A stretch of 64,000 nt of DNA, taken from NCBI GenBank assembly GCA_001029795.1, contig CP011216.1:134903-198902 (forward strand), given 5' to 3'. This DNA comes from a candidate division Kazan bacterium GW2011_GWA1_50_15 (GTDB taxonomy: Bacteria; Patescibacteriota; Kazan-3B-28). The notes beneath the pieces are model-generated. The model was given only the letters and a program-made list of their open reading frames with translations. It searched no databases and was not told where the DNA came from. The position numbers and the translations under genes are program-made. This document shows, one piece after another, positions 3,922 to 63,563 of the stretch; positions within the stretch are counted from its first letter, which is position 1; each line of letters opens with the position of its first letter.

Positions 3922-5232
3922 ATGATGAAAGATGGCGATAATTCAATGAAGGATATTGTAGCGCTCTGTAAGCGGCGCGGGTTGATTTACCCGGGTTCGG
4001 AGATTTATGGCGGATTGGCCAACACCTGGGACTATGGTCCGTATGGAGTACTTTTAAAAAACAACGTTAAACAACTCTGGTGGAAGGAAATAGTGATGAA
4101 ACGGGCCGACATCGTGGGTCTAGATAGTGGGATATTGATGAACCCAAAGGTATGGGAGGCTAGCGGCCATCTAACTGAGTTTACCGATCCGTTAATCGAG
4201 TGCAAAGACTGTAAAAAACGGTTTAAAGGAGATGATGTTAAGGGTGATGCCTGTCCGGAGTGTAGCGGAAGTCTTGGCGAGGCCAAAAAGTTCAATTTAA
4301 TGTTTGCGACCCACATCGGACCGGTGGCGGATGATAAAAGTATCACGTATCTGCGGCCGGAGACGGCGCAAGGGATTTTCGTCAATTTTAAAAATGTATT
4401 GGATAGCACGCGGGTGAGGCTACCCTTTGGCATCGCCCAGATCGGTAAGGCGTTTCGCAACGAAATCACCCCGGGCAACTTTACTTTTAGAACACTGGAA
4501 TTTGAGCAATTCGAGTTGGAGTATTTTGTCTATCCCGAAACCGCGGATAAATTTTTTGCTGACTGGGCGGATGAACGGTTGCGGTGGTATGTGGATCTGG
4601 GGTTAGACAGTGCCAAGATCCATCTGAAAGCGCATGACAAAAAAGATCTGGCGCACTACGCCAAAGCGGTCACGGATGTGGAGTACAAATTCCCGTTCGG
4701 CTGGAGCGAATTAGAGGGAATAGCCAACCGGGGTGACTATGACCTAGTTCAGCATCAGAAAGTCAGCGGCGAGAGTTTGGAATACACGGACGACGAGGGC
4801 AAAAAAGTGATGCCGTATATTATTGAACCGTCTGGCGGGGTGGATCGCGCCACGCTAGCATTTTTGGTGGATGCTTATCGCGAAGAAGAGGTCAAGGGTG
4901 AGAAGCGGGTGGTGTTGGCGTTAGACCCGCGCTTGGCGCCGATCAGGGCGGCTGTCTTGCCGTTAGTAAAAAAAGAACCGGTAGTGACCAAGGCCAAAGA
5001 GATCTGTGACAGTTTGAGAAATAAATTCTTTGTTGAGTATGACGAGTCGGGCACGGTGGGGAAGCGGTATCGCCGGCAAGATGAGATTGGGACGCCATTT
5101 TGTATTACCGTGGATTTTGAGGGGCTAGAAAGTGAGCCCCAGACCGTAACGATTCGTGACCGAGACACGATGGAGCAGAAGCGGATTGTGATAGACCAAG
5201 TTGGGGAATGGTTGGCAGGGAAAATAAACTAG
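3922..5232 (+). CDS. glyQS: Glycyl-tRNA synthetase (class II, dimeric GlyQS type)
   Basis: 436 aa with GSEIYGGLANTWDYGPYG, class II motifs and an anticodon-binding C-terminus. Confidence 0.85.
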   Translation: MMKDGDNSMKDIVALCKRRGLIYPGSEIYGGLANTWDYGPYGVLLKNNVKQLWWKEIVMKRADIVGLDSGILMNPKVWEASGHLTEFTDPLIECKDCKKRFKGDDVKGDACPECSGSLGEAKKFNLMFATHIGPVADDKSITYLRPETAQGIFVNFKNVLDSTRVRLPFGIAQIGKAFRNEITPGNFTFRTLEFEQFELEYFVYPETADKFFADWADERLRWYVDLGLDSAKIHLKAHDKKDLAHYAKAVTDVEYKFPFGWSELEGIANRGDYDLVQHQKVSGESLEYTDDEGKKVMPYIIEPSGGVDRATLAFLVDAYREEEVKGEKRVVLALDPRLAPIRAAVLPLVKKEPVVTKAKEICDSLRNKFFVEYDESGTVGKRYRRQDEIGTPFCITVDFEGLESEPQTVTIRDRDTMEQKRIVIDQVGEWLAGKIN

Positions 5233-57179: not shown

Positions 57180-57650
57180 ATGAAAACAAGTAGAACGGCG
57201 TGGCGACTGATGAAATATTTTATGCGACTCTCGGATGAGATAGGGGAACTTGTCTTGGATGAGTTGCGACAACGCAAACTGCGCAAGAGCCCGCGGGCGG
57301 GGGAAGGTAGATCCTTTCGTTATCTGAAGCAGGCGGGTTATCTTGTTCCATTAGGAGAAAATCGTTTTCAGATTACTGATCTTGCGCGGATTAATTTTTT
57401 AGCCGAACTGGTCAAGGGACGCAAACCAGACGGTCAGTGGAGAATAGTGATTTTTGATATTCCTGAAAAATTGAAACGCAGTCGCAATGTCTTTCGCCGT
57501 CATCTTAGAGAATTGGGCTTCCGAATGAAACAACAGAGCGTATGGGTGTCGCCGTTACCCTGTGATGATTTGGTGGAGTTGGTAATAAAATATCATGGTC
57601 TGGGTCGGTACGCCGAGTTGTTGGTAGGGACAACAGTAGCACTACACTGA
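57180..57650 (+). CDS. Putative regulator: N-terminal winged-helix plus C-terminal Cas2/PaaX-C-like domain
   Basis: 156 aa; the N-terminal half looks like a wHTH, and the C-terminal WRIVIFDIPEKLKRSRNVFRRHLRELGFRMKQQSVWV resembles the Cas2-like ferredoxin fold seen in PaaX-type regulators. It occupies the rimM position between the KH gene and trmD. Confidence 0.35.
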   Translation: MKTSRTAWRLMKYFMRLSDEIGELVLDELRQRKLRKSPRAGEGRSFRYLKQAGYLVPLGENRFQITDLARINFLAELVKGRKPDGQWRIVIFDIPEKLKRSRNVFRRHLRELGFRMKQQSVWVSPLPCDDLVELVIKYHGLGRYAELLVGTTVALH

Positions 57651-57747: not shown

Positions 57748-58467
57748 ATGAAGTTTACGGTGATAACGATTTTTCCGGGGTTGGTGGAGGATTATTTCAA
57801 GGAAGGGATTTTGTCCCGGGCTTTGCGGAACAAGCAGGTTGGATTAAAAGCGATTAATCCGCGCAAGTTTACGAAGGATAAGCATCAGACCGTGGATGAT
57901 GTGCCGTATGGCGGGGGGGCGGGGCTGGTCATGAAGTTGGAGCCGCTGGTGGCGGCAATTAAACAAGCGGCGAAGTCTCGTTTTCGTCATTCCGAACTTG
58001 TTTCGGAATCTAGTTATGAAACGGGGAAGATCCTGAAACGAGTTCAGGATGACGGGAAAAAAGTAAGAATTATTTTATTAGATCCGAGGGGGAGGCGGTT
58101 TACGCAGAAAGAAGCGAAGCGGCTGACGAAATATGATGAATTGATTTTTGTGTGTGGAAGATACGAAGGGATAGATGAAAGAATTAAACATTATATTGAC
58201 GAGAAATTGTCAATCGGGGATTTTGTGTTGATGGGTGGAGAATTGGGGGCGCTGACGGTAATGGAAGCGGTGGCGCGATTAATTCCAAATGTGTTGCATC
58301 ATCCGGAATCGACAAAATTTGAAAGTTTTTCCGAAGGAAATAATTTGGAACATCCGCAGTACACTCGGCCGGAGGTATTCGAGGGGCATAAAGTGCCGAA
58401 GGTACTTTTGTCTGGGCATCATGGGAAAATTGGGACGTGGAGAGAGAAACAGACCAAGAAAGCTTGA
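57748..58467 (+). CDS. trmD: tRNA (m1G37) methyltransferase TrmD
   Basis: SPOUT trefoil-knot motifs (VITIFPGL, GGGAGLVMK, CGRYEGIDERI, GGELGALTVMEAV). Confidence 0.85.
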   Translation: MKFTVITIFPGLVEDYFKEGILSRALRNKQVGLKAINPRKFTKDKHQTVDDVPYGGGAGLVMKLEPLVAAIKQAAKSRFRHSELVSESSYETGKILKRVQDDGKKVRIILLDPRGRRFTQKEAKRLTKYDELIFVCGRYEGIDERIKHYIDEKLSIGDFVLMGGELGALTVMEAVARLIPNVLHHPESTKFESFSEGNNLEHPQYTRPEVFEGHKVPKVLLSGHHGKIGTWREKQTKKA

Positions 58468-58523: not shown

Positions 58524-58730
58524 TTCAAGGGTCTGAGCGACCCTTGGACCGCGGTTACTTTCCTCTTGGGGAAAGTAACCAAAGCCGTGGCCCTGTTCAC
58601 TCGGCCTATTCATTGGCTAAATCGATGGGTGCTCCCGCCGAACTCGTCCCGGCTAGCCGGGACTCAAACATGCGGCTCCGCCCCAAGCGATTTAGCTCAA
58701 TTCAAGACGGCCTCGTTCCAAAGGGCCGTA
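58524..58730 (+). repeat. Mosaic intergenic repeat family 1, copy B
   Basis: Hairpin 1 is agggtc/gaccct (58526-58546). Hairpin 2 (58553-58580) is identical to copy A. The body is about 80% identical to copy C. Confidence 0.7.
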
Positions 58731-58887
58731 TTGGGGGAAAGCTTGACTGGGAGCGAGTTTTGTGCTATGTTTGGGGTGTAAGGTGGAGCGGTCGTAATCT
58801 GGATTTCTAGTGCCGCTATATCAACCACCAGCACCTTAAAGACTTGCTTACTACAGTTGGCCTATAAGGTGAAACAAGGAGACTGGG

Positions 58888-59508
58888 ATGAAACTCCTGG
58901 CCGCCCTTAAGTTTGTCGTCGAGTTGCTCACGCAGCTCGTCACCCTGGGTGAAGAAGGCCTTGGTCGGATTATGGAACGGATGAACTATATCCGCGAAAT
59001 TACCGGCCGGGTACACCTGCCCACCATCCAGGAATTCACACAATTTCTGGACCAGGCCGTAGGCCACATCGTAGACTGCGATGCTGATCCAACCATCCCC
59101 TCGGATTACAACTGGACCATCGAACGCCACATCAAGAGCGGTAAGGTTCGGCTGGAACGCCGTGGAGACACTCTGTATGTTGACGGGAAGAAGGTTATCC
59201 TTCATCTCGTCAAGCAACAGACCAGGAACGGGGTCATCCTGGGCCACGAACTCTGCAAGGAGCTCGAGAAAGGCAAGTTGGTGTTGCTCAGCGCCAACCT
59301 ACTTGACTATTTACTTGAGCACCCCGAGCTTATCCCCGATACCTGGAAGGGTAAGGCCGTGTTCTTCTGGGGCACAGTCTATCGCGGCTCGGACGGCAGC
59401 CTCAACGTTCGTTACCTCGGCTGGGACGATGGTGGGTGGAGCTGGGACTACTACTGGCTCGACTACGGCTGGTACTCGAACCGCCCGGCTGCTGTTCTCG
59501 CAAGTTAG
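58888..59508 (+). CDS. DGR target protein: C-type-lectin/FGE-like fold with C-terminal variable repeat; no signal peptide
   Basis: 206 aa. The last ~42 aa (VYRGSDGSLNVRYLGWDDGGWSWDYYWLDYGWYSNRPAAV) are encoded by the VR, which matches the TR except at TR adenines. Confidence 0.85.
   Translation: MKLLAALKFVVELLTQLVTLGEEGLGRIMERMNYIREITGRVHLPTIQEFTQFLDQAVGHIVDCDADPTIPSDYNWTIERHIKSGKVRLERRGDTLYVDGKKVILHLVKQQTRNGVILGHELCKELEKGKLVLLSANLLDYLLEHPELIPDTWKGKAVFFWGTVYRGSDGSLNVRYLGWDDGGWSWDYYWLDYGWYSNRPAAVLAS
59377..59501 (+). repeat. DGR variable repeat (VR)
   Basis: Ungapped 125-bp alignment with 59832-59956 (offset 455): 107 identical, 18 mismatches, every one at an A in the TR (A->G 13, A->T 3, A->C 2). 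Confidence 0.9.
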
Positions 59509-59528
59509 TCTTTGGACCTTGGGCCCTT

Positions 59529-59586
59529 GGATCTTCGGATCCTTTGACCTTGGTCCTGCCCGCACGGCAACGTGCGGGTTTTTTTG
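59529..59586 (+). terminator. Two tetraloop hairpins downstream of the VR (ggatc-ttcg-gatcc; cccgcacg-gcaa-cgtgcggg plus T7)
   Basis: The second hairpin plus ttttttt is an intrinsic terminator for the target gene. A GC-rich hairpin 3' of the VR is also a known DGR homing enhancer. Confidence 0.55.
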
Positions 59587-59831
59587 TTACAATGTTGCTG
59601 GAACTAGGCGAATATGCCAGAGATCACGGTTTCTGGCTGCCGAACCCAGTATCCATATGTCCAGAGTATCTCCGACTACGGTTTGAGGTAGTGTGATGTA
59701 TGTAGAAACTTCAAAAAATGAAGATACTTGGTGCGAGATATTCAGGCATTATAGATGCCGAATAAAATACAGCCCCAAGAGTTCTGCTGTACAGCAGAAT
59801 CAAGGGGTGGTGACAATGGATGGTATCTCGC

Positions 59832-59956
59832 ATAAATCGCAACTCGGACGGCAACCTCAACGTTCGTTACCTCAACTGGAACGATGGTAGGTGGAACTGG
59901 AACTACAACTGGCTCGACAACGACTGGAACTCGAACAACCCGGCTGCTGTTCTCGC
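59832..59956 (+). repeat. DGR template repeat (TR)
   Basis: Invariant partner of the VR; read in frame it encodes 13 Asn (AAC) codons (SRINRNSDGNLNVRYLNWNDGRWNWNYNWLDNDWNSNNPAAV). Confidence 0.9.
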
Positions 59957-59964
59957 TACTGTCT

Positions 59965-60330
59965 TCATTTCTCTCCCGACTTATCGGGAGAGTTTTGTCT
60001 ATTAAGCTGTCCGTTCCATCCACCCAGCATCTTGCCGATTTCATCCAGTTGAACCGAGACAGCACTGTACTTTTTGTTATCTAGTGACTTGGTCTCCCAG
60101 AGAACCATTAACAGAATTTTGAGGGTGTCAGTTTTACGGATTGCTAATCTGACATATGGAGATTTTTCGGCTCGACTAAGAAAACTGGCTTGGGCGACGG
60201 CTTCGATAACCTCAACAAAAAGGTTGTCCGCCCTTCGTCCCAAGGAATAACGATGGAGTTTGGGCAGAACTTGGTAATAGTTATACCATAGGAGGTACGC
60301 CTGTTTTAGATGTTGAAGTAGCGGGAGCAA
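59965..60330 (-). CDS. avd: DGR accessory variability determinant (Avd-like four-helix-bundle protein), opposite strand to TR and RT
   Basis: 121 aa. The C-terminal DEIGKMLGGWNGQLNRQ matches, from memory, the conserved (E)(V/I)G(R/K)(I/M)LG(S/G)W...(L/V)NR(K/Q) C-terminus of Avd / 23S-IVS four-helix-bundle proteins. TTG start; located between the TR and the RT. Confidence 0.55.
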   Translation of the reverse strand: MLPLLQHLKQAYLLWYNYYQVLPKLHRYSLGRRADNLFVEVIEAVAQASFLSRAEKSPYVRLAIRKTDTLKILLMVLWETKSLDNKKYSAVSVQLDEIGKMLGGWNGQLNRQNSPDKSGEK

Positions 60331-60351
60331 CTCTCTCTCTCTCTCTCTCTC
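60331..60351. repeat. (CT)10 dinucleotide microsatellite in the avd/RT divergent intergenic region
   Basis: ctctctctctctctctctctc sits within the 44-bp gap between the avd start (60330, minus) and the RT start (60375, plus). Confidence 0.9.
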
Positions 60352-60374
60352 GATGCCGCGGGTCGGTTCATCAT

Positions 60375-61418
60375 ATGAAAATCGCCGAAGGGTATTACGA
60401 ACACATTATCTCACTCCATAACCTCCTTGAGGCCTGGCGGGAGTTCGTGGTTGGGAAGCGAGCTAGGGTAGATGTCCAGTTGTTTGAGCGGAACTTAATG
60501 GCTAATATTATCAAACTAAATAGGGATTTGGAAGTTGGGAAATATCGGCACTCGGATTATCACCCATTTAAGATTTCTGATCCGAAACCTAGGAACATTC
60601 ATAAGGCGAGTGTCCGAGACCGATTATTGCATAAAGCCATCTATAGAATCTTATATCCGACATGGGATAAAACCTTTATTGTCGACAGCTATTCTTGTCG
60701 AAATAACAAAGGTACTCACAAGGCATTTGCTAAACTTGAGACTGTCGCTCGGAAGATTAGCCAGAATTATACCAGACCATGTTTTGCACTGAAGTGCGAT
60801 ATTAAAAGATTTTTCGACAGCGTGGATCATGGGGTGTTGATGGGACTGCTAAGGGAACGCATCGCCGATGAACGACTTTTGAAGTTGCTTGAAGAAATTA
60901 TTTTTAGTTTTTCTGTCTGGATTCCGGGTCAAGCCCGGAATGACGAAGAGGGCAAGGGGATGCCGTTGGGGAATCTGACATCGCAACTGTTTGCCAATAT
61001 CTATCTCGACCCGCTGGATAAGTTCGCGAAGCACCAACTCAAAGCCAAATATTATCTACGGTATGCAGATGATTTTATCTTTTTGGCCGATAATCCGGAT
61101 GAATTGACGGGCTACTTAGTTGAAGTTGCCAGGTTTGCGAAATCGGAACTGGAGCTCCAACTCCATCCTAACAAGATTAGTTTGAGAAAACTGAAATGGG
61201 GGATTGATTATGTTGGGTATGTCGCCCTGCCGCAATATAGCTTGCCTAGAAAGAAGACGGTCACACGAATTATTAAAAATATTCGTCGACTTTTGGCGGC
61301 GGGAGACGATGTGGCGCTGGCTAATGCGCTGCCATCGTACTTAGGGTACCTGAAACATGCCAGGAGCCGTGGGATAGTTTGCGGGCTGGAGCGGCTGATG
61401 GCGCCAAAGGGGTGGTGA
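60375..61418 (+). CDS. DGR reverse transcriptase
   Basis: 347 aa with RT motifs 1-7, including GMPLGNLTSQLFANIYL (the DGR-specific I/LGxxxSQ motif) and LRYADDFIFL (YxDD). Confidence 0.9.
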   Translation: MKIAEGYYEHIISLHNLLEAWREFVVGKRARVDVQLFERNLMANIIKLNRDLEVGKYRHSDYHPFKISDPKPRNIHKASVRDRLLHKAIYRILYPTWDKTFIVDSYSCRNNKGTHKAFAKLETVARKISQNYTRPCFALKCDIKRFFDSVDHGVLMGLLRERIADERLLKLLEEIIFSFSVWIPGQARNDEEGKGMPLGNLTSQLFANIYLDPLDKFAKHQLKAKYYLRYADDFIFLADNPDELTGYLVEVARFAKSELELQLHPNKISLRKLKWGIDYVGYVALPQYSLPRKKTVTRIIKNIRRLLAAGDDVALANALPSYLGYLKHARSRGIVCGLERLMAPKGW

Positions 61419-61586
61419 GGTACACTAGGAGAAGAAGGCGCTACGCTAGATTCCTCGACTGCGTTCGGAATGACAAAAGAGGGGCGGGGATGACGAGGAT
61501 GGATCCTGACCTGCCTGCCGGCAGGCAGGAATAAATTCAGGATGACAGAAACAAGGGTCGTTCAGGGTGACGGAGAGGGAGAAGCA

Positions 61587-63563
61587 ATGAAGTTTAAGAT
61601 TAAATCCAAATTGAAACCTGCGGGAGATCAGCCCGAAGCAATTCGGGCGTTGGTCGATGGGCTCAAAAAGAAATATCGGGACCAGACCTTGCTGGGGGTG
61701 ACGGGGTCGGGGAAGACCTTTACGATGGCCAATGTCATCGAGAAGGTGCAGAAGCCGACGCTAGTTATCGCGCACAATAAAACGCTGGCGGCGCAGTTGG
61801 CCAGCGAGTTCCGCGAATATTTTCCCGACAACGCGGTGCATTATTTCGTGTCCTACTACGACTACTATCAGCCGGAGGCGTACATCCCGCGGACCGATAC
61901 TTACATTGCCAAAGATGCCTCCATCAACGATGAGATAGATAGATTGCGCAATGCAGCGACTGAGGCGCTTTTAACTCGCAAGGATGTGATTATTGTGGCG
62001 TCAGTGTCGTGCATCTACGGTTTGGGCAATCCGGAGGTCTATCAAAATGAGAGCATCGAGTTGAGGGCGGGCAAGACCTACAAACGGGAGCGAATCCTGC
62101 GGCAGCTGACCGATATTCAATACCAACGCAACGATATCAACTTTGTTCGCGGGAGTTTTCGGGTGCGGGGCGAAGTGATGGAGATTTTTCCGGCTTATGC
62201 GGAAGTGGCGTACCGATTTGAATGGTTTGGTGATAAGTTGGAGCGGATTCGACAGGTGGAGTATTTGACCGGCGAGATTTTGAGCGAACCAAAGGAGGTG
62301 ACCATCTTTCCGGCCAAACATTTTATTACCCCACAAGACCGCTTAAAGGGAGCGATTGAAAATATTCGGACTGAACTTAGAACTCGTTTGAAGGAACTGA
62401 CGGTAGCGAATAAATTGCTGGAGGCCCAGCGGCTGGAACAGCGAACGAATTATGATATTGAAATGTTGCAGACGGTCGGATATGTTTCCGGAGTTGAAAA
62501 CTATTCGCGGTATTTGGACGGACGGGAAGCCGGCTCTCCGCCATCAACTTTGCTCCATTATTTTCCGGACGATTTTTTGATGTTCATTGATGAATCGCAT
62601 ATGACTTTGCCGCAAATTCGCGGGATGTATAACGGCGACCGGGCCAGAAAAGAAGTGTTGATCGAGCACGGGTTCCGCCTGCCCAGCGCGTTTGATAACC
62701 GCCCACTGCAGTTTTTGGAATTCGAGAAATTGGTTAACCAAGTGATTTATACTTCCGCGACGCCCAGCCAAGAGGAACTTGGTAATAGCAAACAAATCGT
62801 GGAGCAGATCGTGCGGCCGACCGGTCTAGTGGACCCGGCGGTAGAGGTGCGGCCGATCGAGGGGCAGGTGGACGACTTGATGGAAGAGATTCGCAAGCGG
62901 GTGGCTGTCCATCAGCGGGTGTTGGTGACAACGCTAACCAAAAAGATGGCCGAGGATTTAACCAGCTTTTTGCAGGAGGCGGATATTAAAGTTCAATACA
63001 TTCATTCGGATGTGGAAACCTTAGAGCGGATAGATATTCTCCGCGACCTGCGGTTGGGCAAATATGATGTGCTGGTGGGAATTAACTTGCTTCGCGAGGG
63101 GCTGGACCTACCGGAGGTATCGTTGGTGGCGATTTTGGACGCGGACAAAGAGGGCTTTTTACGGTCAGATACTGCTTTAATCCAAACCTTTGGACGGGCA
63201 GCTCGGCATTTGAACGGCAGAGTCATCATGTACGCTGATAAAATTACCGGCTCAATGCAACGAGCGCTGGAGGAAACCGACCGACGGAGAGAAAAGCAAG
63301 TTGAATATAATAAGAAACATAAAATTACGCCGACAACGATTATTAAAGCGATTAAGAGTATTCACGCGTCAACCGGCGAGGAAGAATTGCCGCCGGAGCA
63401 GGATATCAATAAATTTGCCAAGGCGGCCAACGCCGAAGAGCTGAAGGCAATGATTCGCGAGCTAGAAGATGAGATGGACTTGGCGGCGAAGAATTTGGAG
63501 TTCGAAAAAGCGGCGGAGTTGAGAGATAGGGTAGAATTGCTAAGAGGGGAGCTAGGGAAGTAA
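61587..63563 (+). CDS. uvrB: Excinuclease ABC subunit B
   Basis: [15 protein letters not shown] Walker A, a beta-hairpin region, helicase motifs and a C-terminal UvrB/UvrC interaction coiled coil ([14 protein letters not shown]...FEKAAELRD). Start placed at MKFKIKS. Confidence 0.9.

Follow-up and report, generated by a model that had tools for sequence, protein, structure and literature searches.

We analysed a stretch of 64,000 nucleotides from the candidate division Kazan bacterium GW2011_GWA1_50_15 (contig CP011216.1, positions 134,903 to 198,902; hereafter the window), which carries a diversity-generating retroelement (DGR) whose order along the plus strand is target gene, template repeat (TR), inverted avd and reverse transcriptase (RT). 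A (CT)n tract lies between the avd core and RT, and our main finding is that this tract probably acts as a slipped-strand contingency switch in the 5' coding leader of avd, placing DGR activity under translational phase variation. We also lean, by a smaller measure, towards a wider proposal, in which most DGRs of the candidate phyla radiation (CPR) carry a maintained tract switch in the avd leader, shared with RT in one subclass, and natural populations are mostly off. The features on which the argument turns are listed below.

59965..60330, minus strand: avd core open reading frame (ORF), 121 aa if read from the TTG at 60330; four-helix bundle.
60331..60351: simple-sequence tract, (CT)10C on the plus strand, that is (GA)10G on the avd strand (Tandem Repeats Finder, TRF, and regular-expression scans).
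60352..60374, minus strand: avd leader, 23 nt, whose tandem start codons, ATG ATG (60374-60372 and 60371-60369), directly adjoin the RT ATG at 60375.
60375..61418, plus strand: DGR RT, 347 aa, intact; its own ATG follows the tract at a distance of 23 nt.

In the whole 64 kb window, TRF and regular expressions alike found no other dinucleotide run of at least five units. An earlier note on this DNA had placed avd at 59965-60330 with a TTG start, next to the tract and separated from the RT ATG by a gap of 44 bp, and all these positions held. In the frame of the TTG, no ATG, GTG or TTG is found upstream before a stop at -78 nt. As judged from the related loci described below, the avd start is likely the minus-strand ATG at 60374, which would put the tract in the 5' coding leader of the gene. 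At n = 10, the frame of this ATG does not run into the avd core and yields a 22-aa peptide (MMNRPAASRERERESCSRYFNI). Taking the ATG at 60374 as the start, as inferred from relatives, we computed the products expected at other repeat numbers: n = 6, 9 and 12 give Avd proteins of 133, 135 and 137 aa, respectively, and any other n gives peptides of 20-31 aa.

Nine assemblies of this strain were found by searching for proteins identical to the RT. Eight of the nine have (CT)10C and one has (CT)9C; the latter (locus L046, groundwater run SRR2177362) matches the window over 4,723 nt in everything but this shorter tract. The avd gene of L046 is a 135-aa ORF (P0001) beginning MMNRPAASRERERE-LLPLL..., which starts from the ATG abutting RT, also the gene caller's choice, and whose tract reads ...SRERERE-LLPLL. 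Translation of the tract as Glu-Arg repeats, envisaged in the earlier note, is thus what the in-frame allele encodes; it does not apply to the window's own TTG frame, which has no upstream start, the ATGs being in another frame. The description of the tract as a length-variable element was also borne out, since its length differs in related as well as in same-strain genomes.

In the model that we propose, ribosomes start on avd at the minus-strand ATG at 60374, pass through a short leader and the tract, read as (Arg-Glu)n, and continue into the four-helix-bundle core. Slipped-strand mispairing during replication would add or remove repeat units and, the unit being 2 nt long, only every third n (6, 9, 12) would keep the core in frame. 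The n = 10 allele would end after 22 codons and give little or no Avd. Without Avd, the RT would be unable to make or home cDNA, leaving hypermutation heritably and reversibly off, and a lineage could in this way freeze a useful sequence of the variable region (VR) of its target gene, or resume the search. The only DGR examined biochemically, that of BPP-1, depends strictly on Avd for cDNA synthesis and retrohoming, and avd nonsense mutations abolish its activity, down to ~1e-9 (PMC12875486). For the present clade, we infer that the ATG is the functional start, that out-of-frame alleles make no Avd, that switching is frequent and reversible in populations, and that Avd is essential.

The identity of the 121-aa minus-strand ORF as an Avd protein with a four-helix-bundle fold, put forward in the earlier note, was confirmed by profiles, structure prediction and structure comparison. 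The core matched the Pfam family bAvd (PF22296) with an E-value of 7.8e-10 and 39.6 bits for a cut-off of 40, and the NCBIfam profile DivGenRetAVD with an E-value of 2.7e-16, under the 80-bit cut-off of that profile. A sequence search of the PDB with Avd returned the BPP-1 Avd entries as sole matches. The AlphaFold (AF2) model of the 135-aa form has four helices arranged in a four-helix bundle (predicted local distance difference test score, pLDDT, 89) and superposes on BPP-1 Avd 4dwl with a template-modelling (TM) score of 0.91 and a root-mean-square deviation of 1.4 A; Foldseek matched it to 4dwl and 8ub7. In this model, the first helix starts at residue 17, residues 1-16 (leader and tract-encoded SRERERE) being disordered, and position 1 of the NCBIfam Avd profile aligns with the residue just after the tract, residue 16 of the 135-aa form. 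Variation in leader length should therefore be tolerated by the protein, as far as the model and the profile can tell.

We then looked at related loci, 119 of which were gathered by RT similarity (39 from genomes and 80 from metagenomes, with RTs at 44-74% identity). The avd gene was divergent from RT and immediately upstream of it in 96 of the 99 loci with detectable Avd and co-directional in three, two of them from Clostridia. The inverted avd, first taken as a novelty, is thus the rule here and corresponds to an arrangement already published as Architecture B3 (PMC5758913). Among the 81 non-redundant divergent loci, there are 63 in which a tract separates a minus-strand ATG from the conserved N-terminal motif of Avd. 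On the avd strand, 42 of these tracts are poly-C (6-13 nt, mode 9-10), 17 are (CA)n, three are (GA)n and one is (CT)n. Such tracts are concentrated at the junction, with 68 of them in the 96 junction windows (13.6 kb) compared with 4 in the remaining 437 kb. The upstream ATG was in frame with avd in 19 of the 63 tract-bearing loci and out of frame in 44, whereas in the 18 tract-less loci it was in frame in 17 and out of frame in one (Fisher p = 8.7e-7).

The leaders themselves point in the same direction. Among the best 120 of 2,234 Avd homologues, they mostly have the form M-x(5-20)-PPP(P)-x(2-3)-LPLLQ, or contain HTHTHT or RERERE, and many other homologues of this set are truncated gene calls that begin at the conserved motif. 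One homologue, P0002, is 90% identical (BLASTP) to the in-frame 135-aa form of the window avd and has an HTHTHTHT leader; locus L050 has a (CA)12 tract beside a remnant RERERE. This turnover of tract type among close relatives points to selection for mutability, not for a particular sequence, at least as read from the loci compared.

Several observations weigh against a translated switch. The 19 in-frame loci out of 63 are close to one in three, the proportion also expected of a tract that is neutral and untranslated. Both in the window and in L001, the tract is followed at once by an in-frame TTG, and the purine-rich (GA)n might act as a weak ribosome-binding site, n = 10 then still making a 121-aa Avd, in a leaky manner. 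The nine same-strain assemblies show one alternative length only and are consensus assemblies, not reads, and one-base homopolymer differences between assemblies could partly come from sequencing or assembly error. The essential role of Avd is extrapolated by analogy from BPP-1. Finally, start-codon usage and promoters are poorly known in these bacteria. The first of these points can be joined into a different explanation, in which avd is leaky or constitutive, its real start is the TTG at 60330, the GA tract is a purine-rich ribosome-binding region and the length polymorphism is neutral; the 121-aa product would indeed hold the whole Avd core. However, the TTG aligns with an ordinary conserved Leu/Ile codon, which is ATH or CTN in most relatives, and in 28 of 49 out-of-frame loci the stretch from the tract to the fifth core codon lacks any in-frame ATG, GTG or TTG, and so any canonical start after the tract. 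Tract-less relatives all start upstream of the TTG position, at an ATG 4-17 codons away, and the gene call of the (CT)9 allele uses the ATG too. Neutrality also leaves unexplained the confinement of the tracts to the junction (68 versus 4) and the co-phasing with RT described next. We thus regard a leaky avd as unlikely.

The poly-G loci (poly-C on the avd strand) provided a second view of the reading frame. In 28 non-redundant loci of this kind, no RT ATG follows the tract. For 19 of them, a plus-strand ATG lies at most 75 nt upstream of the tract, and the tract lengths at which it is in frame with RT are exactly those that bring avd into frame; the same co-phasing was found in one of 30 loci that do have a downstream RT ATG (p = 1.3e-7). 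The shared tract reads GGG in RT and PPP in Avd, the two ORFs overlapping head to head, with the RT ATG frequently lying antisense to a His codon of the conserved N-terminal Avd motif. Members of this subclass are L013 (789-845), L003, L033, L002, L053, L071, L096 and L105. There are thus two sub-architectures, one with the tract in avd only, as in the window, and one in which avd and RT overlap across a shared, co-phased tract. Co-phasing of the two genes is hard to explain unless translation through the tract matters, and a model in which the tract is a non-coding spacer does not predict it.

The latter point bears on the idea that the tract is a promoter-spacing switch, its length tuning transcription between divergent avd and RT promoters. 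The genes are divergent, the tract does lie between the annotated TTG and the RT ATG, and the RT leader contains the tract, so an effect on the RT mRNA is possible. Repeats that control divergent promoters are known elsewhere, as at Haemophilus hif. On the other hand, no -35/-10-like hexamers flank the tract on either strand in a consensus scan, the consensus used being perhaps not that of CPR bacteria, and only 23 GC-rich nt separate the tract from the RT ATG. The region is avd coding sequence in in-frame alleles and in tract-less relatives, and in many relatives the ORFs overlap and leave no intergenic DNA. The 44 bp that had been seen as a divergent promoter gap are probably not one, given that the avd ATG abuts or overlaps the RT start and that promoter-like hexamers are missing around the tract. 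Nor would promoter spacing predict the co-phasing of two reading frames, and we consider it very unlikely.

Start codons of avd and RT are back to back at 60369-60377 (CATCAT directly followed by ATG), with similar arrangements for example in L007 (3989-3997) and L014 (3977-3997), and in some related loci the starts overlap in codon-aligned antisense (ATGATTCAT; MxxLNFH versus MKxxLIH). With starts so placed, the 5' end of each mRNA is complementary to the 5' coding region of the other gene, which gives scope for mutual antisense effects.

The length of the tract was polymorphic between otherwise identical sequences. In six pairs (L014/L085, L061/L063, L100/L101, L102/L104, L068/L070 and window/L046), it was the only difference over 2.7-4.7 kb; four of the six pairs differ by dinucleotide changes, for which sequencing error is an unlikely cause. 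Over 3,966 nt, the out-of-frame locus L009 can be told from the in-frame L070 by the tract, two substitutions and 16 changes in the VR, every one of them at a TR adenine, which suggests that the tract switches within the same short span of time as that in which the DGR is active. We also considered L048 as a 4%-diverged strain that would have kept n = 10 and so attest length stability; its 135 mismatches lie outside the DGR and the DGR itself is identical to that of the window, which makes the comparison uninformative.

These pairs are relevant to a further explanation, in which the tract is an expression attenuator: transcriptional slippage or ribosomal frameshifting would restore the frame on a fraction of the products, giving a constant low level of Avd and no heritable switch. 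It would account for the fact that most consensus alleles are out of frame yet under purifying selection (see below). Homopolymers of 9-11 nt are within the range of RNA-polymerase slippage known in other bacteria; dinucleotide tracts such as (GA)10 are, to our knowledge, not among the established sites of slippage or frameshifting. Against attenuation, length differences were directly observed at the DNA level between otherwise identical sequences, and in-frame alleles are present in the same populations. We hold this explanation to be quite improbable.

If the out-of-frame genes were pseudogenes of dying DGRs, with the tracts as mere mutational weak points, one might expect many frameshifted loci, and 70% of the tract-bearing loci are indeed out of frame; the VR of the window strain is, moreover, invariant across assemblies. 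However, the full-length avd core ORF is kept in 47 of 50 out-of-frame loci, and dN/dS ranges from 0.06 to 0.17 between pairs of out-of-frame avd loci. These comparisons of coding sequences show that out-of-frame avd genes are under purifying selection and are not pseudogenes. Other features speak against decay as well: the TR/VR pattern is purely adenine-specific, the L009/L070 pair differs by fresh VR changes at adenine sites, and new tract types replace old ones at the same site. Decay thus seems to us scarcely credible. Taken together, these data favour the contingency switch in the avd leader over the explanations weighed above.

We next describe the rest of the element, which was confirmed as a real DGR.

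58888..59508, plus strand: DGR target gene, 206 aa; its C-terminal 40 codons form the variable region.
59381..59501, plus strand: VR, 121 nt, at the 3' end of ORF 58888-59508.
59558..59579, plus strand: terminator-like hairpin and T-run after the target gene (9-bp stem with 7 GC pairs, then TTTTTTT; consensus scan).
59836..59956, plus strand: TR, 121 nt, 455 nt downstream of the VR.
59971..59992, plus strand: GC-rich hairpin CTCTCCCGA-CTTA-TCGGGAGAG followed by TTTT, 15 nt after the TR end and within the last avd codons on the other strand (consensus scan).

TR and VR are 88% identical. At each of the 15 mismatches the TR has A and the VR another base, so 15 of the 32 TR adenines are changed in the VR, and all 15 fall at codon position 1 or 2 of the target ORF. 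The last 18 nt of the TR (CCCGGCTGCTGTTCTCGC) are A-free and common to the VR. Scans of the target gene (58888-59508) with Pfam, NCBIfam and PADLOC gave no match. The VR is invariant across the six same-strain assemblies that include it, and (CT)10 is predominant in the strain; an invariant VR fits a strain in which the allele predicted to be off predominates. As a separate observation, contigs of independent assemblies break off within the VR: that of L044 starts at window position 59454, and that of L068 in the VR of the L070 element. Such ends would be expected if the VR were heterogeneous in the sample and broke the assembly graph.

Of 67 non-redundant loci, 26 have on the plus strand, no more than 70 nt from the avd stop, a hairpin and T-run like the one after the TR; the minus strand gave 2 of 67 and random windows 5 of 283. 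Examples are L001 3605-3626, L049 1066-1087 and L014 3584-3607, with the consensus CTCC...GGGAG, and the hairpin overlaps the avd stop or C-terminal codons. Compensatory changes occur in the stem; they were seen on sequences preselected for having the hairpin and were not counted as independent evidence. A TR transcript running on as antisense through avd had been considered at the outset; the structure suggests instead that TR RNA largely ends, or is structured, at 59971-59992. The hairpin could be either a terminator of the TR RNA or a structural element, the equivalent of the BPP-1 spacer. An Rfam E-value scan of 58700-61700 gave chance-level matches only, with no known RNA family in or around the gap.

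Other observations concern this 3' end of avd. In a same-strain variant protein, P0126, from a Joint Genome Institute (JGI) contig of 1453 nt and corresponding approximately to window 59924-59985, Avd (to ...QNSP) is fused to a frame antisense to the TR. This implies that ~60 nt have been deleted, between a point within the TR and the right arm of the hairpin that follows it. In a subclade without the avd 5' tract, a G8 run occurs in the last avd codons next to the TR (L020 2098-2105, L022 3602-3609 and L115 1102-1109).

The RT matched RVT_1 with an E-value of 4e-22, and the motifs PLGNLTSQ and YADD are visible in its translation. Its matches in NCBIfam were to generic RTs and sub-threshold only, and the DGR type was judged from the motifs, not from a DGR-specific RT model. 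The loop before KGMPLGNLTSQ (60925-60965, codons ~184-197) contains an in-frame insertion, IPGQARNDEEG, which resembles a short repeat also present downstream of RT (61466-61495) and in trmD (57980-58060). The same loop carries other insertions in relatives, LDSRLRGNDKEGRGND in L001, another in L003 and one of ~30 aa in L033, which marks it as an insertion hot spot. In L035, which has no avd tract, a G12 run (4529-4540) lies inside the RT gene just before GLPIGNLTSQ and splits RT into two frames; RT itself may be the phase-variable gene in that locus, to judge from this one sequence.

The window is 100% identical over 6.6 kb to GCA_003484385.1, and the host is a Patescibacteria (CPR) metagenome-assembled genome. 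A phage origin was considered, and a viral contig scan returned no relatives. Just upstream of trmD, a 156-aa protein (57180-57650, plus strand) has the PaaX central Cas2-like domain (Pfam E-value 8e-21) and weak Cas2 matches in PADLOC.

How DGR activity is controlled in nature was called "an exciting frontier" in a 2026 study (PMC12875486). Unrestrained diversification would erase useful variants, and a heritable, reversible switch, if true, would explain how lineages alternate between exploring VR sequences and keeping them. It would also explain why CPR avd genes are often truncated or missed by gene callers. Such a locus would be a two-tier evolvability device, with a stochastic mutational switch set over a programmed mutator, and the first described natural regulator of a DGR. 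Contingency loci based on simple sequence repeats (SSRs) would then extend beyond host-adapted pathogens to the CPR, and to the control of a mutator, not of a surface antigen. In the searchable literature, we found no paper in which a DGR or Avd is connected with phase variation or contingency loci, or with homopolymers or simple repeats; the CPR survey of Paul et al. 2017 was outside this search, and a prior mention there is possible.

By its layout, the window element is an ordinary member of a known group, since Architecture B3, "TR-(avd)-RT", represents 90% of CPR DGRs (Wu et al. 2018, NAR 46:11, PMC5758913) and has the same order and orientation, the same host group and a small target gene of no known family. 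That survey makes no mention of repeat tracts, start-codon problems or avd phase variation, and these features are added here.

The likeness to the BPP-1 DGR lies in the adenine-specific TR-to-VR mutagenesis, the Avd bundle, the GNLTSQ and YADD motifs of RT and the A-free, GC-rich TR/VR end. In BPP-1, all three of avd, TR and RT point the same way, and the TR RNA lies between the avd 3' end and a structured spacer that primes cDNA synthesis (PMC12875486). The window, in contrast, has a TR 3' hairpin and U-run inside the antisense avd, an avd divergent from RT and a repeat tract in the avd leader.

The divergent genes hifA and hifB of Haemophilus influenzae have a (TA)n repeat between -35 and -10 hexamers. 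The window has likewise a divergent pair with a dinucleotide repeat between the annotated starts; it differs in that the tract is within a reading frame and has no flanking hexamers. Intergenic SSRs are the subject of PMC12721329.

The closest parallels are the SSR contingency loci, such as the poly-G genes of Campylobacter, the poly-G tracts of hmbR and hpuAB in Neisseria and the phase-variable mod methyltransferases (PMC8355987, PMC3786947, PMC5909438). As in these loci, the repeat is in the 5' part of an ORF, the G/C tract lengths are 8-11, near-identical genomes are polymorphic, alleles in frame and out of frame both occur, and the ORF is intact and under selection. DGRs, the B3 layout and SSR phase variation are thus all known, and what would be new is a DGR with a built-in contingency switch. 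Known SSR contingency loci mostly control surface structures or restriction-modification systems in host-adapted pathogens, whereas the gene controlled here would be the accessory factor of a hypermutator in uncultured CPR bacteria, with a subclass in which one tract would serve two head-to-head ORFs.

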